Shown here one piece after another: positions 13,086-64,000 of a stretch of DNA of 64,000 nt. Source of the DNA: a virus; IMG/VR virus record IMGVR_UViG_3300041809_000571, positions 179,841 through 243,840 of that record; one strand, given 5' to 3'. The notes below the pieces were generated by a model. It did not search any database and was not told where the DNA came from. It saw only the letters and a program-made list of their open reading frames with translations. The position numbers were made by a program, and so were the translations under genes. How positions within the stretch are numbered: position 1 is the stretch's first letter; each line of letters begins with the position of its first letter.

Positions 13086-13086
13086 A

Positions 13087-32200: not shown

Positions 32201-33509
32201 CTCCCCGCTGATTGTAGACCGGGGAAAGAAGGTAGGAGATGCTCGTTCCCTGTGTTGAAGACACGGATAGAGCCGCCTGCATTGCGGAGCCGCCCAACGT
32301 AGAGCCGGAACTGGTTGTCCAATTCCAAGCCGGGGGAGAATCGGCAAGGGTGCTATAACCGATGAGGATGTTACCAACGATGGTGTTGGTTTGAACTCCC
32401 TGTGTAAAGAAGACCAAGGAAACGGTGCGGTTGCTACCCACGGGGAATACGGTCAGTCGGTTATCGGTGTAGCGCCCGGTGAATGTAGTAAGAATCTCAG
32501 TGCTCCCCCAAACAGTGCCGGGAGGAGAAAAGGAGACCACCCCGTCAATCTCATTGATGGAGAAGGTCTGGTCCTGAAACGTCACATTCTTGGGGTGACT
32601 CTCGTAATAGACCTCCACCGTAGTTCCATCCTGACAAACAGCGGATGTGGAGCCAAACACCGGTCCACTACGGGCAGGAGCGGACGCCAATGCCACAGGT
32701 GGTACAGCTATGGTGTCGTTAGGTTCAAGTTGGAAACCCAACAGGGAGTTACCCGGCAACCATGTGGCAAATCCCGACTCATACGCCGGGGGACTGATGG
32801 ATTGGGAGTAATCCGGGTATGGGACGTTGGCGGTAAAACTAAAAGAATTGGAACCGGTGACAGTGACACTAGTCCCGTTAAGGAATTGGGCAAGCTGCAA
32901 CCCCGAAAAGGAGACAGGCACTCCCGCTTGAAACAGGTTGTATCCAGTGACCGTGAGGACGCCGCCAATTATAGAGATGTGGGTGATTTCACAAACTGTG
33001 GGAATCTGGTCCACCACCACCGGATTGACTACTGCTGCAACCGCAAATGACCCAGAGGACAGACGGCAAACATCGTAGCCCTCCCGGACGGCGGAGGCAG
33101 TAGCAAGGACATGAGGACCGGTAAGCGTGTAGGGGGGACTACCCTGAGTGTCAAAGGTAAACTTGATGAGGTCTACCGGAAAAACTTGAGAGGTGGATAG
33201 CGACTCGGGAGGAGAGTAGCTACTCCGGTTATCCTGTGTCCCAATGATGTGAATGTACCGGCTGCCGTCATAAGCAATGACCGGGTCAAAAGATTCGTTG
33301 AGGTTGGGAAAGATGTACTCCGCTACCTGTGTAAAGCTCCACCCCGGACCGGGGTCCGGGGGGACGGCGTTGGAACGAAGAATGACAAAAGAATTGGTAG
33401 CCGGGCGAACCTGACTGACCACAAAGAGAGTTCCACTCACGTCTACGAAGGCAGCATTGCCCTCGTAGAGTTCGGGGGACCAAGTCGTGGTATCAAGCAG
33501 TGTCTTCAT
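29238..33509 (-). CDS. Large Thr/Ser/Val-rich virion protein (1423 aa) with a C-terminal fibronectin type III domain; tail fibre or host-recognition candidate
   Basis: Beta-strand-rich T/S/V/G composition. C-terminus 'LSWSQNRPDLASGYLVQSSIDGGVTWQ...YTYTFRVQTLSADGDSG' is FN3-like. Confidence 0.5.
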   Translation of the reverse strand: MKTLLDTTTWSPELYEGNAAFVDVSGTLFVVSQVRPATNSFVILRSNAVPPDPGPGWSFTQVAEYIFPNLNESFDPVIAYDGSRYIHIIGTQDNRSSYSPPESLSTSQVFPVDLIKFTFDTQGSPPYTLTGPHVLATASAVREGYDVCRLSSGSFAVAAVVNPVVVDQIPTVCEITHISIIGGVLTVTGYNLFQAGVPVSFSGLQLAQFLNGTSVTVTGSNSFSFTANVPYPDYSQSISPPAYESGFATWLPGNSLLGFQLEPNDTIAVPPVALASAPARSGPVFGSTSAVCQDGTTVEVYYESHPKNVTFQDQTFSINEIDGVVSFSPPGTVWGSTEILTTFTGRYTDNRLTVFPVGSNRTVSLVFFTQGVQTNTIVGNILIGYSTLADSPPAWNWTTSSGSTLGGSAMQAALSVSSTQGTSISYLLSPVYNQRGGWSYSNLTIIPQWQDSYAVNDRVVYNGTDYLCLIPMVNRGQWSSTLTYKLNDISAVPVFYVALNHVVGNPENLPPSLDTQATLNTQGIIFTAQVSGSAGSAIQVAFDTTAVGPVVVSGNTIIINGEITLSAAIAQFPVVVKGISVTATLAPGSDGSTLIENALPLNLSANWEVTTAVSIAAPWNPLLSYLAGQTVQIPVYYLNLGGYSAASPVTDTTNWTPLLPPPQDTAHWGITPVAWPFYTAEVNPVTLGLISPATYAALSLTWLRGTKSVVDDESLWAVIGEANTGFSGSPPLQSTPYYVSHFNVPPTVELTPLSGTVLRGNPFLLDASGTYDPDTGDTIQFTWSLQVPTGDAPHVSLTPSNSGTTAELFVDRTIGGATVPIGVAVVAVDYTGVTPNHPPMHVLGIQYVQGTNTITVQVDSLTTVTAGEEILLYGLHIAPQFNNATVTVTSDGTLLSPPGLQFTGTVTFSIPTVQGDYGFTADTGFAITKPQYVVIDSITSPPAGLVVPFNPTPVITMPVGLVGHRNSTVVVAPVITGDTDADDLTTYTWTEPVGTPLQATGTDTPVLTFETNGALVEGETIEWSLVVNDGVNPPVTAFVAIPIDSYDFSPTDSLSLSRSVWWGNIADRNVTAPSPPMEWGALDISSIYSDLSGVKRVSVLQVISPPTQGQDRLVYISPYSVLVFLYLNSPPSSVFRKLLPPQNTVSSPPVLPTVLDAVHTEEDYTLMLASNGYLYRFLPDLPLTSDNPDISLNLSSISSLSFTQIFTTVSYGGNRVLVLSGPDGCLLLQVRTTDLVPQAVLEISTTSQLLYGANNIQFVRLANVENTRSGQIFLGSVTNSGLTYETLIDLSQNAIIGTWDKTKLINQQVTSGEILFEPESAYAGAPLSPTLFAPVDKGPNPLQSNLEQVGLSWSQNRPDLASGYLVQSSIDGGVTWQVASTVNNGSIESIVISLPKGYTYTFRVQTLSADGDSGFSNIEAISI

Positions 33510-34389: not shown

Positions 34390-36951
34390 TCATACACCTT
34401 GTCCGCTGCCTTCCGGCCCTTGTTCAGGTTCCTCATCAACTTCGTCAAGCTGCAATCCCTTGATGACCCGCTTGACGACATCGGACCGCTCCATGACCAC
34501 TTGCCCGATGGAGTTGTAGATGTTGCTCAGCAACTCGTTGAACTTGGCGTCATTCACACCATACAAATCCTCTTCCAGCTTGCGCTTGGCATCTTCGGGG
34601 TCGATTTCCAAAAACTCCAAGATAATACTAACTGGAATACTACCTTTGGAATAAAGATTGTAAAGCATGTCGTAAACGTCCCCGGCGTCACGCAGAGCGA
34701 GCCTAGAGAACGATACCTTGGGGTATATCCAGCGGGGCTTATCCCACTTATCCTTTTCGTAGAATCCCTTCTTCATGGCGACGGGCTTGAAGATACTATT
34801 TTCAATGATGTCAGCAAGCACGTCACGGAACTGGAGATAGGAGGTTTCGATAAGCTGCAACTGGACCTTGTTGCCGGAATAGAGTCCTTCACCAATGAGG
34901 ATTTCCGGGCTGAATCCAAGACCGATGGACAGGTCGGAGTTAGTGTGCTGCCATTCTCCGTCCAGAGATAGCAACCTACCATCCGAACCAATCTCATCCC
35001 ACCGGGCCTCGTAGTTCAATACGACGCTGTAGTCCGGGTCGGCCTTGGCTTCGTCAATGTGCGCACGGAGAGCCATGACTTCGGCGGGCGGGATATCGGG
35101 GGCGATGACCAACGTTTTGGGCGTCATGTTACGAGACGCCAACGTGGACTGCACTTGTCGCAGCTTTTCACGGTAGATGACTGTGCGGATACAACGCTGG
35201 AGGATAGAACGACCGTGAAGTTCGTAGTCACTCTTCTTGCGGGCGAAGTGGATGACGTAAGAACCCTCGAAGGGGTCCTTGTTCAAAGCAACCTTGCCGT
35301 CCGCTTCCAACATACCCTTGACTTCGGAATCGACCTCGGGGTCTTCAAGGTATGCGGTTTTCTGCTTTTCGAGCGGCTTATAGTATACGGTCGGCCCGGC
35401 TGTCATGCTGTCCCCGGCCTCAAGCTCTATCTGCTCGGGAGGAAGGACGTTGATGGCGTCAAAGCCCTCGTAGTCTTTGTTCTCCAAGTGGGAGAAAAGC
35501 TCCTCCTCTTCCTTGCGCTGTTTGCGGATATCCTCCAATTCCTCCAAGACCTGCTTCTTTTTCTCCAGCAGTTTGATGATGCGCTTGAGTTCAAGGAGTT
35601 CCTTTTGCTTGGCGAGGGTTGACCCTTGGGAGATGGCATTCTGCACCGCCCCCACTTGGTCACCGGGGGTCGTCGGCTCGGGAGGCATTCCACCCCCTCC
35701 ACCACCTCCCATGGGAGGAAGCCCACCGCCTCCACCTAAATCTCCTCCTAAGTCTCCACCCAAATCTCCGGGAGGGAGGTCTCCACCGGGTTCTCCCATG
35801 GGGTCCACACCGGCAACACCTTCCAGCCCGGCATCCCCCATCGGTGCTCCCTCTCCACCAGCGGGTGGAGGTGCGCCCGCATCGGGAGGAGCGGCGACTT
35901 TCACCTGAATGGGATAATCATCCTCGGCCTCATCACGGGTGATGAGCTTGGACTCCTTATTCTCCATAGCCAGCTTGATAAATCCCTTGACGCTGGCCGC
36001 TTTCTTTGTGTAGCTGATTTTCTTCTTGCGGATTTCATTCTTGACGTTGGCAATGGTCTCGTCAGGAGCAAAGAGGTTGAACTTAATGCCTGCCTTCTTG
36101 ATTTCACAGATAATGGCGGACTTCTTTTTGAGCCAACTAGAACGCTTTTCAGGCTGGAGAAAGTCCAAGATGGCGTCCGATGTGCCGCCCATCATGGAGC
36201 CTTCGCCTTCCATGCCCGGCTCGGTAGATTGAGCATTGGGGCGCTTTTTGTTCTTCGCCTCCGCCTTCTCTATCTGAGCCTTTGCCAACTTGGAAGGTTC
36301 AACGGGTTCGGCTTCCTGAATGAAAATGAAAGCCTCCCCGATGGTCCAGTATTCCCGGACCGCCTGAATCAAAACCTGAAAGAACTTGGTGTCACTGATA
36401 AGTCCCTGATAGAAGTCGTAAACATAGTCAGCGAAGTCATCGCTGGAACACTTGGGCTTCTCTAATGCCCACTTGGACAAGGGAAGTTCGGTGTGCATGT
36501 CAATAGCACGTCCGACGATGGGGTCCCGGTCATAAGCGAGTCGATAGAACCGGAGTTCTTCCGCCCGGCTGGCGGGGAGTTCGAGGGCGTCTACCGGGAA
36601 CTCATAGCTGTAGTAACCGATGTTGTTGGAATCGGCGATGTCGGCGTTGCCGAGGGTGCCATCACTGAACAGGGCGGCGGTCTTCTGCCGGGTAAGCTCG
36701 TACATCCCCCATCCCTGCGCACCGAAAGGGGTACCTTGGGTCGCCATCTGGCGGACCCGGCTAACCAGAACGTCGGCAATCATTCCGTCATTCGTCATAC
36801 TGGTCCGGGGGCCTGCGGAGGCGTATTGCTTACCACCCTTGCTGGCAGCAACTTTTCGCTTTATTTCGGTGGTCCCCACACGCAAATTAGCTCCCCGTTC
36901 CCTCTTAACCAACACGCTCTTGGGGGTCGTCGTAGTTTTCTTTTCAGCCAT
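34390..36951 (-). CDS. Putative portal protein (853 aa) with an internal Gly/Asp/Pro low-complexity insert
   Basis: Size, acidic C-terminus and a loose resemblance to the T4 gp20 core; the resemblance is weak. Confidence 0.3.
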   Translation of the reverse strand: MAEKKTTTTPKSVLVKRERGANLRVGTTEIKRKVAASKGGKQYASAGPRTSMTNDGMIADVLVSRVRQMATQGTPFGAQGWGMYELTRQKTAALFSDGTLGNADIADSNNIGYYSYEFPVDALELPASRAEELRFYRLAYDRDPIVGRAIDMHTELPLSKWALEKPKCSSDDFADYVYDFYQGLISDTKFFQVLIQAVREYWTIGEAFIFIQEAEPVEPSKLAKAQIEKAEAKNKKRPNAQSTEPGMEGEGSMMGGTSDAILDFLQPEKRSSWLKKKSAIICEIKKAGIKFNLFAPDETIANVKNEIRKKKISYTKKAASVKGFIKLAMENKESKLITRDEAEDDYPIQVKVAAPPDAGAPPPAGGEGAPMGDAGLEGVAGVDPMGEPGGDLPPGDLGGDLGGDLGGGGGLPPMGGGGGGGMPPEPTTPGDQVGAVQNAISQGSTLAKQKELLELKRIIKLLEKKKQVLEELEDIRKQRKEEEELFSHLENKDYEGFDAINVLPPEQIELEAGDSMTAGPTVYYKPLEKQKTAYLEDPEVDSEVKGMLEADGKVALNKDPFEGSYVIHFARKKSDYELHGRSILQRCIRTVIYREKLRQVQSTLASRNMTPKTLVIAPDIPPAEVMALRAHIDEAKADPDYSVVLNYEARWDEIGSDGRLLSLDGEWQHTNSDLSIGLGFSPEILIGEGLYSGNKVQLQLIETSYLQFRDVLADIIENSIFKPVAMKKGFYEKDKWDKPRWIYPKVSFSRLALRDAGDVYDMLYNLYSKGSIPVSIILEFLEIDPEDAKRKLEEDLYGVNDAKFNELLSNIYNSIGQVVMERSDVVKRVIKGLQLDEVDEEPEQGPEGSGQGV
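35676..35790 (-). repeat. Low-complexity coding repeat (GDLPPGDLGGDLGGDLGGGGGLPPMGGGGGGG)
   Basis: Repeated AAGTCTCCACC/AAATCTCC units on the plus strand. Confidence 0.6.
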
Positions 36952-37649: not shown

Positions 37650-40600
37650 CTAGGCAGGTTTCTTGAGGTAATGTTCGGGGATGTGGTCTATGGCTCGGTC
37701 GTGAAGGCACATCCGTATGCCATCATGAAGCACCCAGACGGACTTGTCCCCCTTACCCAGAGTGATGTCGATTTGCATAAGGGTAAGCTGGTCGGCCCCA
37801 GAAATATCGTACACGGTTACACCGGGAGGGGGTCCCTTGGTTTCCGGTACTTCGGGGGTGGAATCTACCACGGGAGGAGCTACAGTGGGTTCTGGCGGGG
37901 CTACAGGGAGGTTCTCCGCTGCGACGAACAGATTGAGGGTACCTTGGGTACCCCCAACCCCTTCTGACGCTTCCTGTGGTGAATTCCACGAAATCTCCAC
38001 TTTCAGGGGTTCGGGGACATAGCGTTTCACCGGAGCGTCTAAGGGCAGAGAACCGAGAGGTCCATATATCAAAGCTGCCGGGTTACGGTCAGCCGGTCCA
38101 AGGCCCATCCGAGTTTCGTACTGTTCCAAGGTCTCCAACTTCGCATCATCCTCGTCGGGCATATTGTCAATACGCCAGAATTCGTCAAGCTGAATGGCCG
38201 CTATGAGCGCCCGCTGGATTTCCTTGGGGTCGGTCTGGGGTACGACTTCTTTCTTCCCCTTCTTCTTGTTGAAGCACCACCAAGCCGCTTGGAAGGCCCG
38301 CTCGTGCAGGTTTTCCTTGAGGAAGGCTTTTGCCTTTTCGACCCGAGCTTCCACCTGAGAAGAGATAGCCTTTATCAGGTTCTTGATGGTCGCACTATCC
38401 CACTCTCCGGGGAGGTACCTGTCCATACCGGATACCCTTGTCCAAGCGGCGGGGATGTGGTCATCATCGCCGGTCACATGATGCTCAACGTCCCAACTGG
38501 GTCCATATTCCGCATCCGCTTCGATGGGCACCTGCCACTTCATAATCTGGTGCAGCTTGCGCAACTTCATCATGCGAGTGATGCGGGGGAGAACGAAAGG
38601 CACGTATTCATTCTTCACGGAAAAGTCGATTTCATCGTGAACCGAACAATGCAACATGAAGATGGTTGCAATAAGCGGGTCTGCTTCAACCCACTGGCGA
38701 ATCTTGTTGAGAGACATCCGCATGAAATCCCCGCAGAGTCCTTGAATGGGGGCATTGACGCTGACCCGCTGAATCTTGCCCATGAACTTGCTGTAGTCCA
38801 TGGCATTGCGAACACCAGTGTCGGGGTTCTTCCACATGGAATTGGCAAGGTTGAGATACTCTTTCCACCGGGGGTCATCAGCCTCCTTAAGCTCCTTCGA
38901 CTTTTTCATGTAATCCCGATACTGCCATAGGTTCTTCTTTTCCTCCTCGTTCGGGACATGAATGTGTAGCGCCTTCATGGCGGAGTCAAACTTGATGACT
39001 CGATTCGTAGTGGTGGTGCAGATGAGTTGGTCTCGGGCAATTGCTTGTTTGCGCTGGCAAAACTCGAAGAACACCGGCACACCCTTCCAGTAGTTTTCCA
39101 CCATTTCCTCACACCGTTGGAAAGTGATGTTGGGGTCCTGCTTCTTCATGTTCTCGTAAATGGTGTAGGCGGTGCCGCCGTAAAGCAGAGCGAAGTTGAT
39201 AATCTTCGCCAAGTCACGCAGGTGCTTAGCACGGTAGTTAGGACTCTTGGGGTCGGAGAATTCCGGGAAGACCTTGCTAGCAGTGAGGGAGTGGAAGTCA
39301 CCCTTGCCATGCAAAAACTCATTGATGAATTCCGGCTCACCCGAGCAGTTGGCGGCGGCACGCATTTCGATATTGCCGTAGTCAACGGTGAAGAATGTCC
39401 ATCCGGGCGGCGAGTAGAACAAGCAGCGGAGATTGACTCTCTGGTTGGCATCAATCTTACCATTCTCGATAAGGAAACCAAACTTGTCTTTGCAGGTCTG
39501 ACAGCCCGGCACCAGACAAACGGTATAACCCATGTACTGACCAATATGATTGTGGATAATACCGGGAGCCTGTTTACGAACCTTAATCTTTTTCTTTGAG
39601 AAAGAAGAAAGTGTAGGAAGGGGAGCAGTAAATTCTCCCTTTTTAAGTAGCTCCGGTTCTCTTGTATATATTTCTGGAACCCAATAAGCGGGCCTACCTA
39701 CATCTCCGGGGTCTTTCTTGAATTTCTTATTCTTCCCCTCATGGGCATAAACCCACCCTGTGATTTCAAAAACCCGAGGCCAGTCTTCCCCCTTATCAAT
39801 GACATTGGAGTTGACTACGAGACGAGAGTCCTCGTCCGAATCTTTTACCTTTAGTTCGCTCATTTTGTGACTACAGCGACCCTCACAAGGCGTGTCTCTG
39901 TAAACAAAATCAGGCTGTGTTCGATATGTACCGTTGGTAAAATCATACCTGATTTCTAACCATTTGGTTGGGACATATTCCCCGCAAACACCGATATAGT
40001 GAGAAAGTAGGGAGTCCCTGCCAAGATAATTCTTACGCTTCTCCTTCAAGGCCGTATCCAACCGTTGCTGAGCATAATCCTTCATGAGGGCGACCTCTTC
40101 ATCAGTCAAGGTCAGCCTTGGTCTGTCTCTCTCAGGTATGTCATCAAAAATTGTCTCTTCCTCTTCAACCTCCCTGAAACACGATGGGTGAAGCTCTTCC
40201 TCGGTGTGGGGTTCTATCTGGTCTTCGGGAATCTCATCAGGAATGAGGACATTTCCCGTCACCTTCCACATCAAGTAACCTTCCACCTTTTTCACAGCTT
40301 GGCTGTTAAGACCGAACCCACCATCCTTGTAAAAGTCACCGCCAGCGGAGGACAGGCGTCCCCCGGCGACCACATTCTGTTTAAGGTATATGCGGGCAGT
40401 GCCATCACTCGGGTCATAGTGGAGGCTGGAAGGGTGTAGGGAGATGTAGCTCTTGTAGTCTGAGAATACTTCAAGGAACTCATCCTCCGGGTGCAGCTTG
40501 TGAAGGTCTTCCACCACCTCGGCATCACACGAGGCTTTCTTAACGCCACTCTTCCCGCCATCCGTCATCTTGAGAGGAGCATAGCCTTTGACATCAAAGA

Positions 40601-41810
40601 AAAGTATGCGCAGGTCGTCATTGGAATCGGGATTAAAACGGTCATCAGGTAACACCACGCCGTCATCAGTGGCATTCTCTTTGTACCCAGCCGCTATGGC
40701 AAGGTCATACAGTTTCTTCTGAAATTGAGCGAGAACCCGTTGGTGCCCTTTGACAGTGCGGGTATGACGGTCGGTGTCGATAAGGAACCGCTGCCGTTCA
40801 ATCCAAGTGATGGAGTCAACAAGCTCATGGTCGATGCGATGCACGGTCTTGCGGGTCCGGGCAAGGGGATGGAGCTTTTCCCATAGAAGCCAAGTACAAA
40901 TGGCATCAGAGGCGGCGTAATAAAGGGCGATGTCTACGGGTATCCAACTGAAAGGAACAAAGTGCTGCTTAAGCCCGTGCTTATTCTCTTTCTTCTGCTC
41001 CAAGGTGCAGGAGCAGAAAGGAGAGCCGTTGTGGGGACAAGTATCCGCCTTAACCTTGGCGATTTCCTCAAGCTCGATTTGCTCAATACCCAGCAGGTTG
41101 CTGGACAACGCCTTCAAGCCGCCGCTATCCCCCGTATAGAACTGCTTGTCTTCCATGTCAGCTTTGGGGTCATCAATGTATTGCAAAACCTGCACATCTT
41201 CAAAGTGAGGATAAGGACGGAAGACAATGCCCATGGTGAGGCGCATGACTTCCCGGTCGAATTTCCCATTGTAAAAAACAAGGTGTACCTGATTGAAGAA
41301 CGGTTGGAGAATTTCAGCACATATTCTGCGGTCTATGTTGCGGGCCGGGGTGGTGAGAGCAAGGTCCTGAAACTCATGGGTGATGGGGATGTATATGCCC
41401 TTGACACCATCGGCAGAGAGACAGATGCCGGAAATATCGGTCTTGATTTCATACTCTTGGTGGTAGGAGCCATCAGGCAGCTTCACCATCCTGATAAAGA
41501 GCCGGGTGTCAAGGCTCACGTCTTCCGTATCCAATGCTACAACCGGTTCGGTGAACCCGTAAAACTCAAAACGGGGAGCATTGGTGAGAACCTCGTCAAC
41601 CCACTTCTGTAGGGCTTCGGGCGTATCGACAATCTCGAACGCCTTCTTACTCATCCAATCTTTTTTGACTTTGGCTACACCACCGCCAGCGGAAAGCTCG
41701 GCGAGAATCTCCCGGAACATGGTGCGAATGTCCCGGAGCTTGACGACTTTCTTCTTCTTAACCTTCTTCAAATCGTCGGTGGTGACTTTTTCTTTCTTAA
41801 CCTTTGCCAT
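37650..41810 (-). CDS. Family A DNA polymerase with 3'-5' exonuclease, large internal insertions and a ~350-aa C-terminal extension (1386 aa)
   Basis: Exo I 'VVALDTEDV', Exo II 'YNGKFDREVM', Exo III 'YYAASDAICTWLL'. Pol motif A 'DYGNIEMR', motif B 'RDLAKIINFALLYGG', motif C 'HCSVHDEIDF'. Confidence 0.8.
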   Translation of the reverse strand: MAKVKKEKVTTDDLKKVKKKKVVKLRDIRTMFREILAELSAGGGVAKVKKDWMSKKAFEIVDTPEALQKWVDEVLTNAPRFEFYGFTEPVVALDTEDVSLDTRLFIRMVKLPDGSYHQEYEIKTDISGICLSADGVKGIYIPITHEFQDLALTTPARNIDRRICAEILQPFFNQVHLVFYNGKFDREVMRLTMGIVFRPYPHFEDVQVLQYIDDPKADMEDKQFYTGDSGGLKALSSNLLGIEQIELEEIAKVKADTCPHNGSPFCSCTLEQKKENKHGLKQHFVPFSWIPVDIALYYAASDAICTWLLWEKLHPLARTRKTVHRIDHELVDSITWIERQRFLIDTDRHTRTVKGHQRVLAQFQKKLYDLAIAAGYKENATDDGVVLPDDRFNPDSNDDLRILFFDVKGYAPLKMTDGGKSGVKKASCDAEVVEDLHKLHPEDEFLEVFSDYKSYISLHPSSLHYDPSDGTARIYLKQNVVAGGRLSSAGGDFYKDGGFGLNSQAVKKVEGYLMWKVTGNVLIPDEIPEDQIEPHTEEELHPSCFREVEEEETIFDDIPERDRPRLTLTDEEVALMKDYAQQRLDTALKEKRKNYLGRDSLLSHYIGVCGEYVPTKWLEIRYDFTNGTYRTQPDFVYRDTPCEGRCSHKMSELKVKDSDEDSRLVVNSNVIDKGEDWPRVFEITGWVYAHEGKNKKFKKDPGDVGRPAYWVPEIYTREPELLKKGEFTAPLPTLSSFSKKKIKVRKQAPGIIHNHIGQYMGYTVCLVPGCQTCKDKFGFLIENGKIDANQRVNLRCLFYSPPGWTFFTVDYGNIEMRAAANCSGEPEFINEFLHGKGDFHSLTASKVFPEFSDPKSPNYRAKHLRDLAKIINFALLYGGTAYTIYENMKKQDPNITFQRCEEMVENYWKGVPVFFEFCQRKQAIARDQLICTTTTNRVIKFDSAMKALHIHVPNEEEKKNLWQYRDYMKKSKELKEADDPRWKEYLNLANSMWKNPDTGVRNAMDYSKFMGKIQRVSVNAPIQGLCGDFMRMSLNKIRQWVEADPLIATIFMLHCSVHDEIDFSVKNEYVPFVLPRITRMMKLRKLHQIMKWQVPIEADAEYGPSWDVEHHVTGDDDHIPAAWTRVSGMDRYLPGEWDSATIKNLIKAISSQVEARVEKAKAFLKENLHERAFQAAWWCFNKKKGKKEVVPQTDPKEIQRALIAAIQLDEFWRIDNMPDEDDAKLETLEQYETRMGLGPADRNPAALIYGPLGSLPLDAPVKRYVPEPLKVEISWNSPQEASEGVGGTQGTLNLFVAAENLPVAPPEPTVAPPVVDSTPEVPETKGPPPGVTVYDISGADQLTLMQIDITLGKGDKSVWVLHDGIRMCLHDRAIDHIPEHYLKKPA

Positions 41811-55841: not shown

Positions 55842-57656
55842 CTACCAATCCTCCTTGTAATCGCCGGGGAACAGGATGGACTTGCTCCACCACGGGGAGA
55901 ACATCTTGCCCGCTCTCTGAATAAATACTCCAAACTGAGCGTCGATGATGTAGTGCTCGGCCTTATCTTTGTTGTGGCGGACGGTACGTCCGGTCGCCTG
56001 CTGGAGTTTCAGGGCGGTCGTCCAGTTGTACCAGTCGCCGTCACGAGCCATGCGAGCCTTCACGTAGTCGGTCATGAACTCGTAGGGGACCTTGCACACG
56101 ATGCCGAAGCGCCCGAGGTCGTCTTTCAGGTCCAGTCCTTCGGTCATGCTCGGGCTGATGATGACGGTAGGTTCGTTCACCCGGCGCTTATGTTCTTCGA
56201 TGATAAGCTCACGGGTGCCCTTGGGGCTGTTCTCGTCGTGGGTCAGGATGCGGTCACCGAACCCCTGCCGGGTCAGATAGTCCACGATGTACTTGGTGAT
56301 GGCGAACGTGTGGGTATGGATAATCCCCTTGTCGTTGGCGTGCTTACGGAGAATCTTGGCGCACTCGGCAGCGATGAGCGGTTTCGCCGCTTCGATGGTC
56401 TTGCTGGACATATTCGCCACGGGCTTGTAGTAGATGGGACGATTTTCCAGCGGAAAGTCGGAGTCCATGGCGAGCGTCACGGCATCTTCCTTCTTGATGC
56501 CGAGGTTGCGCATGAAGGTGTCGAAGTCCAAAATCGTGGCGGACATCAGGATGACCATATCCGCCTTCGAGAAGAGCAATTTGTCGGCGAACAGGGTAGC
56601 CGTCAAGGGCTTAATGACCATCTTGGCGGGCTGCAAGGGCACGGGCGCTCCGCAGCGGTAGCACTTCTTTCCGGCGAACTTGAACTTGGTGCGGCACTCG
56701 GGGCACGCCTTGGCTTCGGACTCAGACCAAACCATCCAGTCGTTGAAGTTCTCGGACTTGAGGAACAGGTCCAAGGACTGGAGGAAGCGCTCCAGACCGC
56801 CCGCCTTCTTCTTCATTTTGGCGGCGTCCTTCATGAGCTTCTTGTCCCGGAGTTCTTCCGCCTTGCTGGTCAATTCCTGAATGGCGGCGGCGGCGGCGGG
56901 ACGGAAAGTCTCGTTCAGATAGTCCAGAGCCACGCCCCGACCGGCTGCATCCGCCTTGATGAAAGGCAGGGACATGAAGTCGATTCCGACTTCTTCGCAG
57001 CGCCACTTGGTGATTTCAATGTTCGCCAGACCGAGAATTTGCTGCTCGGCGTTATGAGCTTCATCCAGAATCAACATGGTGCGGTCTTTCAACTGACCGA
57101 CAAAGTTGGACTCGGAGAGGTAGTAAGCAAAATTGGTAGTTCCAAGGGGAGTCGCACAAAAAGCCTCTTTCGCCAGCTTGTAGCCGTGGCAACCGCCCTT
57201 TTCAGCGTGCTCGGGGTAGAAGAAGTCCGTCTCTTCGCAGGACATCAGTTCCCCGCCCTCTTCCTCGGGGAAGTGGTAGCCGCAGTTGTAGTTCGCCCGG
57301 CCCTTGAGTTCGGCAAGGCCGTTCTTCTCAAAGTCGCCCATCAACTGAGCCGTCAGGGATTTCTGTGGGGAGCAGTAGTAAGCTCCCGGCTCGAAGTTGC
57401 CAGCAACCCGCACCGTCTTAGCCCAAGAACCAGCCGCCACGCCGATACCGGATTTTCCGCCGCCCGTGGGGATTTCGAGGACGACGTACTTTTTGTGCTC
57501 ACGGTGAGCTTTCTCAATGGCTTGCAGGGCTTCTTCCTGCGCTACCCGGATGGAAGGGAAGGGGAAGTGTTCACGAATCTTGGGGGAGTCGTTCTCGGTG
57601 AAATTCATGACCGGGCGGTCAGCAATTTCGGTGATGATGGCGGGGGAATCTCCCAT
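55842..57656 (-). CDS. SF2 helicase of the DinG/XPD (Rad3) family with an Fe-S-like Cys cluster (604 aa)
   Basis: 'EIPTGGGKSG' (Walker A), four Cys between motifs I and II ('CGYHF...C...C...C'), 'MLILDEAHN' (DEAH), 'QATGRTVRH' (motif VI). Confidence 0.7.
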   Translation of the reverse strand: MGDSPAIITEIADRPVMNFTENDSPKIREHFPFPSIRVAQEEALQAIEKAHREHKKYVVLEIPTGGGKSGIGVAAGSWAKTVRVAGNFEPGAYYCSPQKSLTAQLMGDFEKNGLAELKGRANYNCGYHFPEEEGGELMSCEETDFFYPEHAEKGGCHGYKLAKEAFCATPLGTTNFAYYLSESNFVGQLKDRTMLILDEAHNAEQQILGLANIEITKWRCEEVGIDFMSLPFIKADAAGRGVALDYLNETFRPAAAAAIQELTSKAEELRDKKLMKDAAKMKKKAGGLERFLQSLDLFLKSENFNDWMVWSESEAKACPECRTKFKFAGKKCYRCGAPVPLQPAKMVIKPLTATLFADKLLFSKADMVILMSATILDFDTFMRNLGIKKEDAVTLAMDSDFPLENRPIYYKPVANMSSKTIEAAKPLIAAECAKILRKHANDKGIIHTHTFAITKYIVDYLTRQGFGDRILTHDENSPKGTRELIIEEHKRRVNEPTVIISPSMTEGLDLKDDLGRFGIVCKVPYEFMTDYVKARMARDGDWYNWTTALKLQQATGRTVRHNKDKAEHYIIDAQFGVFIQRAGKMFSPWWSKSILFPGDYKEDW

Positions 57657-57725: not shown

Positions 57726-58430
57726 TTAGGAACAGAATGACCGAAAGCAGTCGGAGGTGCAGCTATAATCCCGGATATGCTCCCGCACCAGAACTAGCTG
57801 TTCTTCCTTGGGTAAAACGTCCAAAACGGATTCCATGGTCTGGTAAATCCCCTCCCGGAACTCCGAGGCACCAATTTTGTCCTTTTCCTCAATCTGGATG
57901 CCCAGATAACGCCGGGTGATGTTGACCAGTCGGGAGCAACACTCAGAGCAAAGCATGGGGTCGATACCCTCGCCCGCCGCCTCCCGGAGAAGCACTACGG
58001 CCTCCACCACCCTCTCCTCGGGGTCGTCTATGTGGTTGTAGAGGCAGAACAACTTGGCAACGACCTTCTGTCGTGGTTTAAGGGTATCCCACGAGGGAGC
58101 GGACTTGGCGGCGACCTCCGCCATTACGTCGCCGTACATGCCCTCGGTCTTCATCCAGCGCTCACTGGCGGCAAGCTCCTCCGGGGCGGCGGAGATGTAC
58201 CGGCTCAACCGGCGCTCCTTCTCCTTGAAGACCAGTCTCGGGGAGCAGGCGGCTAATCCGGCTGGACCGATGCAGCAGAGGTGGAGTTGGCAGTAGGGAA
58301 TCTTCTGGAGAGTCTGACGGTCGAACTTCTTCCCCGAGGCGATAAGCCCCGGCAACGCCTCCTTGAAATCCATGGAGGGAATGACGGTATCAACTTCGAC
58401 TTTGAGCGGACTGGAAATAGTGAACTCCAT
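57726..58430 (-). CDS. hypothetical Cys-rich protein (start refined to MEFTISS)
   Basis: ORF; CAGTATTATCTCCT-ATG upstream. Confidence 0.45.
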   Translation of the reverse strand: MEFTISSPLKVEVDTVIPSMDFKEALPGLIASGKKFDRQTLQKIPYCQLHLCCIGPAGLAACSPRLVFKEKERRLSRYISAAPEELAASERWMKTEGMYGDVMAEVAAKSAPSWDTLKPRQKVVAKLFCLYNHIDDPEERVVEAVVLLREAAGEGIDPMLCSECCSRLVNITRRYLGIQIEEKDKIGASEFREGIYQTMESVLDVLPKEEQLVLVREHIRDYSCTSDCFRSFCS

Positions 58431-58447
58431 AGGAGATAATACTGACT

Positions 58448-60742
58448 CTACTGACCTATGACGGTCCACAGTGAGCCATTGCTCCAAACCAGCACGGTGA
58501 AACCACCGGAGCCATTGGCAGTGCCGCCCCAACTGTTTACACCACTGTTGTTGACCGCTGCGATACGCCCCGCCTGTCCCACCGCTGACCCGAGGGAAGC
58601 AAAAGGCACGGGAGTAATGGGGGAGCCGCTGACCGGTCCGGTCGCACCGAGAGGTCCGGTATACCCCGTAAAATTACCGGGACCCGTTGGTCCGGTCGGA
58701 CCTACCGGACCCGTAGACCCGATAGCTCCCGGTCCAATGGAGATGATGTTGAAGTTCCCTTGGTTAATCGTTAGGGTAACAGAGCCGGTAGAGGTGCAAC
58801 GGGCAAAGATGGTGAAGTAGTCTCCATCTGCCATGCTGTCGATACCGGAGATGGCAAAGGCTATCTGTTCCGTGGTGCTATCTTCGAGAACATCAACCTC
58901 GTGCTCGGTGAGGATAGAGCCATTCTTAAACACCGCCAGTTGGTAGGTTTGATTGGCGGTGCTTACGGTGAGTGAGCCGGTAAAGAAAGTATCGCAACCG
59001 ATAGCGGGCAGACCCGTGGTACAGGTCAAAGTTTGAGTACCGCTGGTATTCCCAGTCATGTTGGAAAGCTGCCCGAGTGTCCAGTTGACTACCTGATACC
59101 ATGTTCCCTGATTTGTTAAAGACACAATCTCACTGGCGATGGTCATTTCGCCATAAGCAGAGGCTCCCTGCGGTCCTGTATAACCTGTGTAGCCGGTGAA
59201 ACCCGTGGGTCCAGTATAACCTGAGTAACCAGTTGGTCCTGAGTAACCCGTGGCTCCGGTATAACCTGTGAAATTACCCGGACCCGTGTAGCCAGTTGGA
59301 CCGGTGATATTGGGACCTGTGTAACCAGTGTAACCTGTGAAATTACCCGGTCCGGTATAACCCGTGTAACCACTGTAACCTGTAGGTCCACTCGGTCCAA
59401 TACCGGTGGTAGCGACGTTAAAGTTGGCTTGAGTAACGGTTAGAGAAACGGCGTTGGACGTGGTGCAACGAGCAAAGATAGCGAACGTATCGTTGTTCGC
59501 CATGGTATCAAGTCCCGACAAGGAGACGGGGTAAGTAAGAGCAGGGGCACCACCACCGTTGGGGGTAATGTTAACTGTCTGGTCAACCAACTGAGAACCA
59601 TTTTTGTATACGGATAGTTGGTATGTCTGAGAACCAGCGGAGACAGTTACGCTGCCGGTAAAATGTACCCTGCAAGTCAAAGCTGCAAGACCGGTGGTGC
59701 AAGTCAATGTAGCAGCGGACGAGGTATTTCCCGTCATGTTCTGGAAGAGACTTCCCAATGTCCAGTTGACTACCTGATACCAAGTATTTTGGGTGGTGAG
59801 GGTTGTGGCAGTGGCATTCGTTTGAATGCTCATCTCACCATAAGCAACAGGACCGACAGGTCCCGTGTAACCGGTGTATCCTGAGTAACCAGAAGGTCCG
59901 GTGTAACCGGAATAGCCCGTAGGCCCGGTGTAACCTGTAAAAGAGCCGGGACCAGTATAACCTGTGTAGCCTGTAGCCCCGGTGGAACCCGTGGGTCCCG
60001 TATAACCTGTGTAGCCTGTATGGCTGGGTCCAGTGTATCCAGTGTAACCCGTAAAATTGCCCGGACCAGTCGGCCCCGTGGGACCGGTATAGCCGGAATA
60101 CCCGCTGTAACCTGTGGCACCAGTAGCCGCCGCCGTTCCCGCCGCTCCGGTATAGCCGGTGTATCCTGTATATCCTGAGAAACCCGTGAAATTACCCGGC
60201 CCAGTTGGACCAGTATACCCGGAGTAACCCGTGTAACCAGAGGGACCTATGGGTCCTGTATAGCCTGTGAAATTACCGGGGCCTGTGTAGCCCGTGTATC
60301 CTGAGTAACCGGTGGGACCAGAAAATCCCGTGTACCCTGAGTAACCTGTAAAATTTCCGGGGCCGGTATATCCTGTGTAACCACTTGGTCCAGTATAACC
60401 GCTTGGTCCCGTATATCCAGAGTAACCTGTAAAATTTCCGGGTCCGGTGTATCCGGTATATCCGCTGGGGCCGGTAGGACCGGTATATCCTGTGAAATTA
60501 CCGGGACCAGTTGGTCCCGTGGCACCGGAGGAGGCGTACTGCGCCCACCATGTGGGAGAAATGTCGGGCTGATTTCCTGAGTTGTTGTCAAGGAGGGATA
60601 TCCAGAGAGAGCCGCCGTAGCTGGCAACATTGCCCCCAAGATAGACGGCACTGATACTCCACGTCCCTACGAAGGTGACGACGAGTCCCTCTACGGAGTC
60701 GATGAGTTTGGAAACCGGATTGAATACACAGACAAGTGCCAT
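58448..60742 (-). CDS. Collagen-like repeat fibre protein (764 aa). Three G-X-Y triple-helix regions separated by two homologous ~145-aa globular domains; BclA-like tail fibre or decoration protein.
   Basis: aa 73-299, 447-528 and 670-714 are pure G-X-Y ([19 protein letters not shown]). The two non-collagen domains share '...AYGEM.I...[11 protein letters not shown]...NMTGNTS...TLTCTTGL...YQL.V.KNGS...FAIFARCT...'. Confidence 0.8.
59846..60526 (-). repeat. Collagen-like G-X-Y triplet-repeat coding region 1 (227 aa). Regions 2 (59159-59404) and 3 (58601-58735) are shorter.
   Basis: Periodic GGN-NNN-NNN codon structure; the motif [10 protein letters not shown] recurs about 12 times. Confidence 0.8.
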
Positions 60743-60778
60743 GCCTTAGCCCTCAATTAAGAGGGCTATAGGCAGGTT

Positions 60779-63700
60779 TTACGTTGCGGTGGGAGTTTCT
60801 TCCAATTTTTTGAGTTCTTCGGCAAGGATAGCCCGGTCGGAATCCACCTGTGACCAACCCTTCCGGTAGACATCATCCATCACCTGAGTTTTGCTGAAAT
60901 GGTGATGAACTATCGTTGCCGTCTCAGAGTGGAGCGCCTGACCCAGCTTCTTGGCCTTTGCCCACAAGAGATTATCCACGCCGACGTGGTGGAACTTTTC
61001 GGAGAAAATTTCTCCCAGCTTCAAATACAAGTCCCGGCTGATGAGGAAATGCTCACAGATGTTGCCCTCATCCGGGTAGACCGGTCCGGCATTGAAAGAC
61101 ACTAGACCCTTGACAAAGGGATAATGCGGCGGGGTCTCGAAGGGATGAGCCTTGGGTGGGTTGCCCTGCCCTTCCTTGACCGCCCGGTACACGCACCATG
61201 GGTCGAACTCCATATCATTGGCCGCATACACGTAAGCGTCAAAATCCGGGTTGGCGGCGGCGAGCCGGTTGACCTTCTGACTTACCGTGCCCTCGCCTTC
61301 ATCCACAAACGCCTGAATCAGATGCTTGGGGTAGTAAAGGTGGTCCACCGACTCTAAGCACCTCTGGAGGCCCTCCGGGCGTCCCAGCGAGGGTATTAGG
61401 ACAGCGACACGGGGAAGGAAGTCCCGAGTGTAATCTTCCTTAATCCACGCTTTGGCGAAATGGTGGAAAGCCACGGTATCATCCCGTACATCAATCTCCC
61501 CATTCTGATGATTGTAGGGACAGAAGACATGAGCGGGAAGAATTTTGACCGTCAAGTCTGAGGGTGCTGCACTGCTTATCCTTGGAGTGAGGATTTCCTG
61601 TGCTGCTTGGAAAATGTAGTCATCATCACCCTTGAACTTGGCCTCCACTTCGGCGAGATGTTCCGCAAGGATGGGATGACCTTTCTTCGCCCCGATAAGG
61701 CTGTTGGCGATAAAGCCGTTGTCTTCCCGGCAAACGAAGAACGAGTTGCCAAGCAAATGGTTGAAATTCCTGTCCGGCAGGATTTCCATGTCGGAATCGA
61801 CATAGATGCCGCCGTACTCCTTCAACCACCAGATACGCAGGTAGTCCGCTGCCTTGACCCATTTCTTGGCAGCAATGGCAGCGTCCAGATAAGGAATGCC
61901 CTCGGGACAATCAGCTAATCCCAAGACCTTGTGTTCATAGCCGGGAATCTGCTGACTCTTGACGCACTTCTCTACGAGCGGCGGCAAGCCTTCCTTCTCT
62001 GACAACCAGATAGTGAAAATGCTCTTGGGGATGTACTGCTTTTGCTCGGGGAGCAGGTCGGCGTACAGTTCCAAAAGCTCTCTCTGTGGGGCTTGTAAAG
62101 TCCGGGTCTGCCCGAGGAAAATGGGGTCGAAGCTGGAGCCGGTATCGAGGCAGCAGATATCTTTCTCCGCCGTGAGGGCGTCAGCAATGAGCACCTTACT
62201 TATCAACCCGCAACTGAACATGAAGATGCCGTGGGTGTGAACCTTGGATAATACAGCATCCTTGATTTCCTTGTACTTGCTCCACGCATCATGCTCGGGC
62301 ACTTCGATAAGTTCGGCGTTGAGCATGTCGGCGGCACCCTGCAATTTCGCCGGGGCGATGAGAAACTTCTGCGCTCCACTCTCCTTGATGGCCTTGTAGA
62401 AGTTGTGCAAGCCACGGTTGTTAAGTTCCCGGTTTTCCCGGTGCAGAAGCAACCGTCCATCATTCTCACCTTCCAAGTAATCGTGCCAGTTGGTGATGTA
62501 GATATCCCCATCCAACTTGGTGATGGTGTCGTAAGCTTTGCGCAGGGCATAGTTGATGTCATACGAGTAGGGCTGGCCGTCAACCGTTGCTCCCTCTACG
62601 CACTCCATGCACTGCTGTTCGCCGTCGTTGAATTTCACAAAGCTAAAGAAAGGACTGCGCTCTTCTCCCAACACTCGTTCAATGAGTTCCCGGATGCCGG
62701 TGGGATAATTCCCCTTGATTTCCGGGATAGGAATGGCGGGGGTATACCAGATGCTCTCCGCCTTGTAGGTGCGATGGCAGCACTCGTCCACGGCTTGACA
62801 CACACCCATCCATGTTTGTGGCATGTAGTCATGACCGGAGAAGATGACCTTGGCAAGCGGACGCCAGAGTTCGATGTCTCGTTTCACTTCCTCGTAAGTA
62901 TGACCGGCGTCGATAAACACCATGTCAAATGTGCGTCCCTCGGCCCGGAACTTCTCCGCTGCCGCTGCGCTCTCCATCTGACAGATTTCGAGGTTCTTGA
63001 ACTCCCCGACGTTTTTCTTGAACTCGCCGAGGACATCCTCCTGCTTTGCCATGGCATTGGTTTGGTCACGGGGGTCAACCGAGCCTCTCCATGTATCCAC
63101 AGCAGTTAGCTGGCCCTTGCCGTTCAAGCCGGAAAGCAAAGCGTGGGTGGACCGGCCCTTCCAGCTACCTAATTCGAGAATGGTTTGGATTTCTTCCCGT
63201 TGTGCCTGATGGTACAGCCACTCAAGCTCGCCGTGGGTCATCCACCCTTGGATTCCCCCGCCGTCTGCGGCTTGACCTCCTCCGGGCATTTGATAGTCAT
63301 ATTTGGTCGGCTCGTAGAACTGCTTGTCGGCAAGATACTTGGGGTTAGTCGGGTCGTAGGCGAACGCCTTCCTCCAGTGTTCTTTCGACCTCTCCCGGTC
63401 GCCCAACCACCAGAGCGCCCAGTAAAGTTTTTCATGCGGCTCATACGTGTAATGCGCTCCCACGTTACAATAGCAATCGTTAGGTGGGATTTCCAAAGCA
63501 GCCATGCAGTAGCAGGCTACCCGCTGCGGATTGTTCTTCTTCCAGTAATAATCCGCCAGACGAAGCCACGGCTCACGCCGGGTATCATCTATTTGGATGG
63601 CTTTGTGCCAAGATTCGATGCCCTTGTCATCCTCCCCCAGTTGCATGTGGGCGTCCCCGATGAAAATCATGGACTGCCCCCGCTCCTGCTGCCAGCGGTT

Positions 63701-64000
63701 CATGTTGACATGCCGGGTGAGTTCTTTGATGGCTGACCGGGGATGACCGTTCCAGATAAGCTCCCGTCCGAGGTAGTGGCTGTTGCGGTCGTTATCCTGA
63801 TTGAGGTAGCAATCGAGGGACAGACCGGCGAGGTAGCGGGTGCGGTGGGTCTGCGGGGCTTGGAAGTGTTCCAAGAGAAGCACGGTGGGCGGCAGATAGG
63901 TGCGCTTGGCGTTGCCTGCCAGAACCTCATGCACGATGCCTTGCCAGTGCATGATACGCCGGTCATACATCTTGCATTGCCGGAACTGAACAGCGGGCTG
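60779..64000 (-). CDS. Multi-domain glycosylation enzyme, N-terminally truncated by the window edge (more than 1063 aa): TPR repeats + class I SAM methyltransferase + DXD sugar-binding GT (Gly_transf_sug-like) + GT2-like domain
   Basis: TPR-like 'AIQIDDTRREPWLRLADYYWKK...CYCMAALEI'; MT 'ILELGSWKGRST...TAVDTWRG...FDMVFIDAGHTYEEV'; 'YLRIWWLKEYGGIYVDSDMEILPD' (DXD); 'VAVLIPSLGRPEGLQRCLESV' (GT2). The frame stays open through coordinate 64000. Confidence 0.65.
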   Translation of the reverse strand, partial: QPAVQFRQCKMYDRRIMHWQGIVHEVLAGNAKRTYLPPTVLLLEHFQAPQTHRTRYLAGLSLDCYLNQDNDRNSHYLGRELIWNGHPRSAIKELTRHVNMNRWQQERGQSMIFIGDAHMQLGEDDKGIESWHKAIQIDDTRREPWLRLADYYWKKNNPQRVACYCMAALEIPPNDCYCNVGAHYTYEPHEKLYWALWWLGDRERSKEHWRKAFAYDPTNPKYLADKQFYEPTKYDYQMPGGGQAADGGGIQGWMTHGELEWLYHQAQREEIQTILELGSWKGRSTHALLSGLNGKGQLTAVDTWRGSVDPRDQTNAMAKQEDVLGEFKKNVGEFKNLEICQMESAAAAEKFRAEGRTFDMVFIDAGHTYEEVKRDIELWRPLAKVIFSGHDYMPQTWMGVCQAVDECCHRTYKAESIWYTPAIPIPEIKGNYPTGIRELIERVLGEERSPFFSFVKFNDGEQQCMECVEGATVDGQPYSYDINYALRKAYDTITKLDGDIYITNWHDYLEGENDGRLLLHRENRELNNRGLHNFYKAIKESGAQKFLIAPAKLQGAADMLNAELIEVPEHDAWSKYKEIKDAVLSKVHTHGIFMFSCGLISKVLIADALTAEKDICCLDTGSSFDPIFLGQTRTLQAPQRELLELYADLLPEQKQYIPKSIFTIWLSEKEGLPPLVEKCVKSQQIPGYEHKVLGLADCPEGIPYLDAAIAAKKWVKAADYLRIWWLKEYGGIYVDSDMEILPDRNFNHLLGNSFFVCREDNGFIANSLIGAKKGHPILAEHLAEVEAKFKGDDDYIFQAAQEILTPRISSAAPSDLTVKILPAHVFCPYNHQNGEIDVRDDTVAFHHFAKAWIKEDYTRDFLPRVAVLIPSLGRPEGLQRCLESVDHLYYPKHLIQAFVDEGEGTVSQKVNRLAAANPDFDAYVYAANDMEFDPWCVYRAVKEGQGNPPKAHPFETPPHYPFVKGLVSFNAGPVYPDEGNICEHFLISRDLYLKLGEIFSEKFHHVGVDNLLWAKAKKLGQALHSETATIVHHHFSKTQVMDDVYRKGWSQVDSDRAILAEELKKLEETPTAT

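Follow-up and report, generated by a model that had tools for sequence, protein, structure and literature searches.

A phage-encoded multi-domain glycosyltransferase genomically coupled to collagen-like fibers and predicted to glycosylate them

Introduction

The window analyzed here, a 64,000-nucleotide stretch of the IMG/VR virus record IMGVR_UViG_3300041809_000571 (positions 179,841 to 243,840), ends within a phage fiber module in which the gene for a 764-aa collagen-like fiber adjoins a large gene with glycosyltransferase (GT) and methyltransferase (MT) domains, and the question raised by this locus is what such an enzyme would modify. Phage GTs located near tail fibers are routinely annotated as modifying lipopolysaccharide (LPS) or DNA, and to our knowledge only a few mycobacteriophages are known to glycosylate their virions with enzymes of their own. 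The original prediction for this locus, drawn from the window alone, held that the phage glycosylates and methylates its own fiber in a manner resembling the Bacillus BclA loci, with N-x-T sequons as the sites and an enzyme envisaged as GT41/NGT-like. Here, we describe a strongly supported link, observed in both directions, between this enzyme family and collagen-like genes rich in G-X-Thr repeats. This link, together with the profile resemblance between the initiating domain and protein O-glycosyltransferases, predicts for a large family of phage GTs a job different from the one usually assigned to them; the sequon-directed part of the original prediction was not sustained.

Results

Domain Architecture of the 1227-aa Enzyme

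The open reading frame (ORF) at 60779-63970 on the minus strand has no stop codon between 63970 and 64000 and remains open at the window edge, as originally noted. The window holds the 3′ part of the fiber module, the rest of which lies on the 364,142-bp metagenomic parent contig (ENA ERZ27249816 k141_1180871); from 22 kb of this contig (L001) the missing N terminus was obtained, giving a complete gene at L001:6281-9964 that encodes 1227 aa. Profiles built from phage homologues and searched against PDB sequences assigned six modules, namely GT2, tetratricopeptide repeat (TPR), O-methyltransferase, GT-D, DXD GT, and C-terminal GT2. Four of them are GT domains, three of which lie fully inside the window:

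63848..64000, minus strand: 3′ end of the N-terminal GT2, enzyme residues 155-205 of a module spanning 1-205 (PF00535, 7e-12)
63263..63847, minus strand: TPR region, residues 206-400, the presumed substrate-recognition module (TPR_2, TPR_11, TPR_8, residues 264-309; consensus-TPR matches in PDB)
62738..63265, minus strand: class I S-adenosylmethionine (SAM)-dependent O-methyltransferase, residues 400-575 (Methyltransf_24, 1e-16; PDB 6g7d, 1.2e-7, then cation-dependent O-methyltransferases)
62078..62740, minus strand: GT-D domain, DUF1792-like, residues 575-795 (PDB 4phr/4pfx, GalT1 DUF1792, 1.1e-6; 5v4a, 5e-4)
61493..62080, minus strand: GT-A DXD glycosyltransferase of the GT32/bacterial-toxin type, residues 795-990 (Caps_synth PF05704, 1.5e-8, and Gly_transf_sug PF04488, 1e-6, both above cut-off)
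60779..61495, minus strand: C-terminal GT2-like (GT-A) domain, residues 990-1227 (PDB 9jma glucosyltransferase, 4e-7; GT2 6yv7; TarS; D1083 invariant)

The TPR region, the MT, the DXD GT, and the GT2-like C terminus had been recognized in the original prediction, which counted two GT domains where there are four: the GT-D/DUF1792 domain and the N-terminal GT2, mostly beyond position 64000, had been missed. The remainder of this N-terminal GT2, including its DXD motif (D118-x-D120), lies at L001:6281-6742. Leaving TPR proteins aside, the solved structure closest to the N-terminal module, as judged with the GT2-TPR profile against PDB, was GmaR (22ao, 1.4e-15), followed by SunS (1e-7), both well ahead of the wall-teichoic-acid GT TarS (5e-5). 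Within the enzyme family, no variation is seen in the catalytic motifs D-x-D, D-G-E, D-x-D, and N-D; in the N-terminal GT2 this concerns D39, D44, and D118-x-D120-E121 in 31 family members, and in the GT-D domain D39-G40-E41 in 14 sequences. The Pfam DUF1792 model itself gave no match to the enzyme at E<=0.1. GT-D domains of the DUF1792 type are known from the stepwise elaboration of O-glycans on serine-rich-repeat adhesins. The profile of the DXD domain, in which D-x-D is likewise invariant, matched YeGT (1.5e-9), PaTox (5e-9), SetA, TcdA/B, and Och1.

Across 82 related loci, the N-terminal GT2 (81), the TPR (81), and the C-terminal GT2 (66) constitute the core of the family, and the MT (26), the GT-D (19), and the DXD GT (23) are accessory. 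With no convincing transmembrane segment found along its sequence, the enzyme is predicted to be a soluble single polypeptide of four GT domains and one MT, and is an unusually elaborate example. No GT41/NGT family occurs among its Pfam/NCBIfam matches, its catalytic modules all match GT-A or GT-D structures, and no oligosaccharyltransferase (OST; PglB/STT3) gene was found among the called genes of L001. A GT41/NGT-type mechanism is therefore not supported, the TPR being part of a GT2 (GT-A) enzyme.

Two-Way Association with G-X-Thr Collagen Genes

The enzyme family is widespread in environmental phages, comprising 268 clusters at E<=1e-5 and at least 563 relatives in IMG/VR. Among the 185,579 bacterial and archaeal representatives of GTDB, taken as one genome per species, there were 15 enzyme matches, all on contigs of metagenome-assembled genomes (MAGs) from unrelated phyla. 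To place the pairing seen in the window in context, we compared 83 phage loci bearing a relative at 43-92% identity with 120 random IMG/VR loci (1.0 Mb). A collagen-like ORF was located within 10 kb in 66/83 of the enzyme-bearing loci versus 2/120 of the random ones (Fisher p=1.5e-34, in a statistic that ignores kinship, the loci not being phylogenetically independent). In 61 of the 66 positive loci the distance was within 3 kb, and all real collagen ORFs lay on the strand of the enzyme. The collagens so associated carry Thr at 68% of Y positions, with Tyr (38%) and Pro (27%) at X, and the two collagens in the control sample, small as it is in such ORFs, have a Thr plus Ser fraction at Y of 0.22 and 0.11. 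As a separate observation on composition, Tyr is the commonest X residue in the collagens of the phage loci L001-L083, which we judge unusual.

No other neighboring gene family was common to more than 31/98 loci, which indicates that the pairing goes beyond a single conserved block of synteny. The link also holds down to 27-30% identity, where GT2-TPR matches of ~345 aa in Clostridia MAGs are encoded immediately upstream of G-X-T collagen genes. In a cultured Actinomycetia phage, DSL-LC01 (L308, OQ999401 101148-107690), two GPT-collagen genes (products WJZ48556 and WJZ48555) are situated ~3 kb upstream of a 358-aa enzyme homologue (WJZ48552); between the collagen genes and the homologue come first a hypothetical gene and then one annotated as "tryptophan halogenase." The placement of this halogenase gene echoes the predicted halogenase/dioxygenase neighborhoods of collagen-like proteins (PMC2938197).

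The association was also recovered from the opposite side. An exhaustive scan for DNA encoding GPGNFTGYT, a peptide of the fiber repeats, returned 76 IMG/VR contigs. The enzyme is encoded on at least 33 of these, a minimum figure given that the other contigs are for the most part covered incompletely. Taken from both directions, the link between fiber and enzyme is strongly supported.

Structure of the 764-aa Collagen-Like Fiber

The fiber gene, directly downstream of the enzyme gene and co-oriented with it, could be divided as follows:

58448..60742, minus strand: collagen-like fiber gene, 764 aa, the predicted acceptor substrate (Pfam Collagen, 1.4e-26; many PHROG tail-fiber families)
60527..60742, minus strand: fiber N-terminal domain, residues 1-72 (41% identity to the N terminus of a 1277-aa fiber, L001:1133-4966; relatives in loci L005, L007, and L208)
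59849..60526, minus strand: collagen-like segment 1, residues 73-298 (G-[Y/P]-[T/S] repeats with six GPGNFTG and one GPGSFTG)
59402..59848, minus strand: predicted TNF/C1q-like jelly-roll head domain 1, residues 299-447 (AlphaFold2 model and Foldseek)
59165..59401, minus strand: collagen-like segment 2, residues 448-526 (two GPGNFTG and one G-P-N-I-T)
58739..59164, minus strand: predicted TNF/C1q-like head domain 2, residues 527-668 (duplicate of head 1)
58448..58738, minus strand: short collagen segment 3 with one GPGNFTG, then a small C-terminal domain, residues 669-764 (from sequence)

Both the collagen-like nature of this protein and the duplication of its globular domains, as originally described, were borne out, heads 1 and 2 being 53% identical over 150 aa (E=4e-52). 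Its 101 G-X-Y triplets carry Thr in 59 and Ser in 21 cases at Y (80 Thr or Ser), and Tyr in 48 cases at X. A single-sequence AlphaFold prediction of the head was poor, with a predicted local distance difference test (pLDDT) score of 57; the AlphaFold2 model used instead, built for head 1 from a 30-sequence alignment (pLDDT 91.6), shows a TNF/C1q-like jelly roll. Its Foldseek matches in PDB include EDA-A1 (4e-7, template modeling (TM) score 0.71), the BC2L-C lectin, cyanophage fiber CBD/phage receptor-binding domains, and Bacillus ExsFA/BxpB. A head-domain profile gave no significant match to PDB sequences, and the identification came by fold search alone.

A word-indexed protein search with the head domain found no match, and an exhaustive HMMER search found 138 homologues, in many cases forming the C-terminal end of the protein; half of the homologues scanned also hold collagen repeats. 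A few match the BclA_C, TNF, or C1q Pfam models weakly, BclA_C below cut-off, and the 764-aa fiber itself gives no match to BclA_C. In this fiber the heads are duplicated and internal, not terminal. On the modeled fold, the combination of a G-X-T stalk with a TNF-like head makes the BclA-like architecture real at the level of design, and the analogy to BclA loci stood for the stalk and the fiber-enzyme pairing, the head being alike in modeled fold. Neither the exosporium localization nor the N-terminal targeting feature of such proteins was found here, in a phage context and with an N-terminal domain common to the phage's tailspike-like fiber; residues 1-72 are probably an attachment or anchoring domain. 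Across 30 diverse homologues, the consensus of the TNF-like head (region 59393-59857) keeps N-A-T-A-T...L-T-T-Q-N-T-W-Y, which indicates that some of the N-x-T sites in the heads are conserved features of that family.

The GPGNFTG Motif

The original prediction counted the motif [10 protein letters not shown] about 12 times in the fiber; we counted 6, alongside nine GPGNFTG and one GPGSFTG. The reported richness in N-x-[ST] sites was confirmed in number, with 26 sites versus 10.4 +/- 2.8 in composition-preserving shuffles (2.5-fold), but these sites are not independent because nine are one repeated motif and several others were duplicated along with the head domain. In every copy the motif takes the form G-[P/V]-G / N-F-T / G, with its Asn standing where the G-X-Y register, otherwise uninterrupted, calls for Gly (9/9 copies here and 19/19 in the neighboring 1277-aa fiber), and the Thr of NFT shares its register with all other repeat Thr. 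The 28 copies of the two fibers are written in 27 different DNA versions, synonymous codons varying at every position, and TRF detected only weak DNA arrays in the 764-aa fiber gene. These findings indicate that the peptide motif is kept by purifying selection and not by recent duplication, the repeats being old. Under selection and closely tied to the enzyme family, GPGNFTG occurs on 76 phage contigs or more.

The emphasis placed on the sequons was nevertheless not supported, as the association follows G-X-Thr collagen with or without NFT: GPGNFTG is present in 35/92 same-strand collagen ORFs near the enzyme and lacking in 57/92, including loci with only the core enzyme. That the motif is a dedicated site, in which Asn is N-glycosylated by a cytoplasmic GT-A/GT-D enzyme unrelated to NGT/OST, or that the Tyr of G-Y-T is glycosylated by the toxin-like domain, appears quite unlikely; modification of either residue would bring a chemistry of protein glycosylation new to bacterial viruses.

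Proposed Role of the Enzyme

We consider it probable, if short of assured, that the enzyme glycosylates and methylates the collagen-like fibers of its own phage, O-linked on Thr/Ser of the G-X-T repeats. The self-modification originally proposed would thereby persist without its sequon/NGT mechanism, drawing on the two-way genomic association, the profile homology to protein O-glycosyltransferases, and the SgtA-BclA3 precedent (PMC7157674). The GT2-TPR module would act in the cytoplasm of the infected cell, where the TPR would bind the repetitive G-X-T/S collagen region and the GT2 would transfer a first sugar to the hydroxyl of Thr/Ser at Y. This sugar would then be extended to a short oligosaccharide by the C-terminal GT2 and, in this phage, also by the GT-D and DXD toxin/GT32-like domains, and the O-methyltransferase domain would cap a sugar hydroxyl. 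The product would be a fiber shaft densely coated with methylated glycans, a coat that could make the triple helix more stable, protect it from proteases, or adjust adsorption. What the sequences show directly is the domain content, the conserved catalytic motifs, the homology to protein glycosyltransferases, and the very strong two-way coupling to G-X-Thr collagen genes; from these we infer which residue accepts the sugar, how the steps are ordered, which sugars serve, and that modification takes place at all.

Several considerations weigh against this proposal. We know of no case in which a collagen-like phage fiber has been shown to be glycosylated. Synteny within a tail-fiber module can reflect shared regulation and not an enzyme-substrate relation, and the kinship among the loci stated above bears on the association as well. 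Because GTs act poorly on collagen once it has folded into a triple helix, the modification would have to precede trimerization. The nearest PHROG family of the MT domain is labeled "DNA methyltransferase," in 17/83 loci the sequence covered contains no collagen ORF, and the homologue in phage PaBG has no collagen neighbor.

Were the proposal correct, many "auxiliary metabolic" GTs of environmental phages would need re-annotation and the unusual G-Y/P-T composition of phage collagens would be explained, with a bearing on receptor binding, particle stability, and immunogenicity. For glyco-engineering, the enzyme would offer a compact single-polypeptide assembly line of glycans (four GT domains and one MT) as well as a TPR-guided O-glycosyltransferase of collagen repeats.

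Comparison with Known Systems

In the literature we found no account that couples a phage GT2-TPR family to collagen-like fibers, the nearest published prediction being the hydroxylation/sulfation of co-encoded collagen-like proteins (PMC2938197). The chemistry has bacterial precedent in SgtA-BclA3 and BclA, and its pairing with collagen fibers in phages is apparently undescribed. In Clostridioides difficile, SgtA, a 358-aa protein with GT-A and TPR encoded immediately upstream of bclA3, transfers beta-O-GlcNAc (N-acetylglucosamine) onto Thr of GPT repeats in vitro (PMC7157674). Compared by architecture and gene order, the two systems share a GT-A/GT2 followed by TPR and a gene that adjoins, and is co-oriented with, a G-X-Thr collagen gene; minimal relatives of SgtA size occur as the 358-aa GT of phage DSL-LC01 and the ~345-aa GT2-TPR matches of Clostridia MAGs. 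In contrast to SgtA, the enzyme described here is phage-encoded, with an added O-MT, GT-D, DXD GT, and C-terminal GT2, and unlike BclA3, the collagen forms a phage fiber and not a spore nap, its repeats being chiefly of the G-Y-T/G-P-T kind and interrupted by GPGNFTG.

The same GT-TPR order is found in GmaR, the flagellin O-GlcNAc transferase of Listeria monocytogenes (PMC9638930), likewise a cytoplasmic O-glycosyltransferase of a repetitive structural protein; GmaR differs in having an anti-repressor domain, in acting on flagellin, and in the absence of extra GT or MT domains. BclA of Bacillus anthracis/cereus combines a collagen-like GXT stalk with a trimeric TNF/C1q-like head, to which the head described here is related at the level of fold only. 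The BclA glycan includes methylated sugars. The logic of coating a fiber matches that of the spore glycoproteins BclA and BclA3.

Among viruses, A064R of chlorovirus PBCV-1 is a soluble GT-GT-methyltransferase that decorates the glycan of the virus's own capsid (PMC9614988) and, by description, is alike in being a virus-encoded multi-domain enzyme with GTs and a sugar O-methyltransferase directed at a structural protein of the virus. It has three domains, acts on the N-linked glycan of a eukaryotic-virus capsid, and is without a TPR/initiating domain, whereas six modules with four GT domains are present here. In the streptococcal dGT1/GalT1 (DUF1792 GT-D plus GT2), a GT-D with a DXE-type motif is fused to a GT-A (matches to PDB 4phr and 5hea), and O-glycans are elaborated stepwise on a repetitive Ser/Thr-rich protein; in that system, however, the GT-B enzymes GtfA/B initiate and the substrate is a secreted adhesin. 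In mycobacteriophages, phage-encoded GTs reportedly O-glycosylate the phage's own virion proteins, in work attributed to Freeman et al. in 2023 and cited in PMC12582341. The targets there are reported to be C-terminal regions of capsid and tail-tube proteins, modified by separate small GTs, in contrast to the collagen-like fibers considered here.

Alternative Acceptors

Two alternatives keep the fiber as substrate and change the residue. N-linked modification, with the Asn of GPGNFTG and the N-x-T sites of the heads as cytoplasmic acceptors, would suit the purifying selection seen in the 28 copies and their 27 DNA versions, the 2.5-fold excess of sequons, the tight linkage of motif-bearing collagens to the enzyme family (at least 33/76 contigs), and the position of an Asn that always replaces the register Gly and should be exposed. 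We nonetheless regard it as very unlikely, as neither GT41/NGT-type nor STT3/PglB-type domains were found and the GT domains are all GT-A or GT-D, the solved enzymes most closely related to the initiating domain form O- or S-linkages, 57/92 same-strand collagen ORFs beside the enzyme (core-enzyme loci included) are without the motif, and the NFT Thr stands in register with the other acceptor-type Thr, so that the motif may be a structural interruption or hinge. The other candidate residue is the Tyr at X of G-Y-T, with the DXD domain as the transferase. PaTox is a Tyr-GlcNAc toxin, and the DXD-domain profile matches both it and YeGT; Tyr occupies 38% of X positions overall, and more where the enzyme has a toxin/GT32-like domain (median 0.49 vs 0.35, p=6e-5, without phylogenetic correction). 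This correlation is, however, confounded by relatedness, the DXD domain is accessory (23/82 loci) while Tyr-rich repeats occur without it, and the same profile also matches Och1-type sugar-to-sugar transferases, all of which makes Tyr O-glycosylation most improbable.

The remaining alternatives move the target away from the fiber. If the enzyme instead targeted a glycan of the host envelope (LPS, capsule, or teichoic acid), so as to exclude superinfecting phages or mask receptors, it would lie in the fiber module solely because this is the hypervariable region of host interaction. Such a role would agree with the usual reading of phage GTs near tail fibers (PMC7029224, PMC10202952), with the common occurrence of GT2, GT32 (Caps_synth), and O-MT domains in polysaccharide synthesis, and with the PaBG homologue, annotated as a lipooligosaccharide (LOS) glucosyltransferase and devoid of a collagen neighbor. 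Yet no membrane anchor, flippase, or polyprenol-linked machinery was found in the enzyme or among the genes of L001, and no Gtr-like (GtrA/GtrB/GtrC) membrane proteins were found at the locus, where the neighbors are fibers, a LamG protein, and a helicase. Polysaccharide GT2s score far below GmaR and SunS, the soluble TPR-bearing architecture would go unexplained, and so would a G-X-Thr collagen neighbor retained in ~80% of loci over 27-92% identity while other neighbors vary; a host-glycan target is accordingly judged unlikely. Glycosylation and methylation of the phage's DNA bases, for its part, is suggested by the PHROG label of the MT domain (9.6e-20) and by the glycosylated hypermodified bases that are common in large phages (PMC13326640). 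It seems scarcely credible given that the MT profile matches O-methyltransferases and not DNA MTases, that the TPR, the GT-D domain, and a toxin-type GT are without precedent in DNA modification, that the gene belongs to a structural (fiber) module and not to nucleotide-metabolism genes, and that the collagen association would be left unexplained. O-glycosylation of the fiber at Thr/Ser is the reading that we retain.

Neighboring Genes of the Fiber Module

The enzyme is flanked by two fibers of the same repeat type. The second one, upstream and beyond base 64000 (L001:1133-4966), is a 1277-aa protein with 19 GPGNFTG, sharing its N-terminal domain with the 764-aa fiber and ending in a pectate-lyase/rhamnogalacturonase-like C-terminal domain that suggests a tailspike depolymerase. 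Between this fiber and the enzyme lies the gene of a 397-aa LamG/concanavalin-like protein (L001:4967-6160), conserved (59% identity) in the closest relatives only. Two further features border the 764-aa fiber within the window:

60743..60778, minus strand: 36-nt spacer from enzyme stop to fiber start (perfect 7-bp hairpin AGCCCTC-TTAAT-GAGGGCT; AAGG before ATG)
57726..58430, minus strand: 234-aa ORF directly downstream of the fiber (gene call; 65-97% identical copies in L002, L005, and L007)

No T-tract terminator was seen in the spacer and no terminator-like site was found there by the scan, which indicates that enzyme and fiber are probably co-transcribed; the promoter/terminator scan as a whole gave nothing usable. 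Located directly before the AAGG ribosome-binding site, the hairpin may serve translation control or be an RNA-processing mark. The 234-aa ORF, without a Pfam or PHROG match and kept with the module in the closest relatives, could encode a fiber assembly factor.

The original prediction also pointed to a second MT and GT1 pair at 12423-14247. The pair exists on the minus strand (Methyltransf_23, 220 aa; GT-B Glyco_trans_1_4, 386 aa), but we found no evidence tying it to the fiber, from which it lies 44 kb away. A homologue of the GT1 occurs in one related locus only (L018, a large phage contig), at 32% identity and ~2 kb upstream of the GT2-TPR gene, the MT has a homologue in no related locus, and the neighbors of the pair are without informative domains. 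The pair was set aside as part of the fiber system, not being generally co-inherited with the module.

Phage Context and Other Genes of the Window

That the window is phage DNA shows in its portal-like protein (34390-36951), its family A DNA polymerase (37650-41810), its helicase (55842-57656), and a RecA-like protein; no tRNA genes were found in its 64 kb. Compared with 50,697 deposited phages, the region gave no match by megablast and distant partial matches only by tblastn.

A few genes outside the fiber module are noted for their own sake. In the polymerase (minus strand, 1386 aa), the exonuclease and polymerase matches are ~470 residues apart, and within the gap falls a match to a PHROG family without an assigned function (residues 566-716). 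Adjoining the portal-like gene, an ORF at 29238-33509 (minus strand, 1423 aa) has a weak CBM5/12 match (residues 451-478) and no PHROG match, and may encode a large virion protein. The ORF at 493-6639 (minus strand, 2048 aa) has an N-terminal GNAT acetyltransferase (residues 41-108) as its sole recognizable domain, leaving ~1900 residues without annotation. Finally, an HNH endonuclease gene (9421-9873, plus strand) runs opposite to almost all other genes, and near it lies the gene of an inorganic-pyrophosphatase-like protein (7045-7881, minus strand; PF18823, 6e-33).

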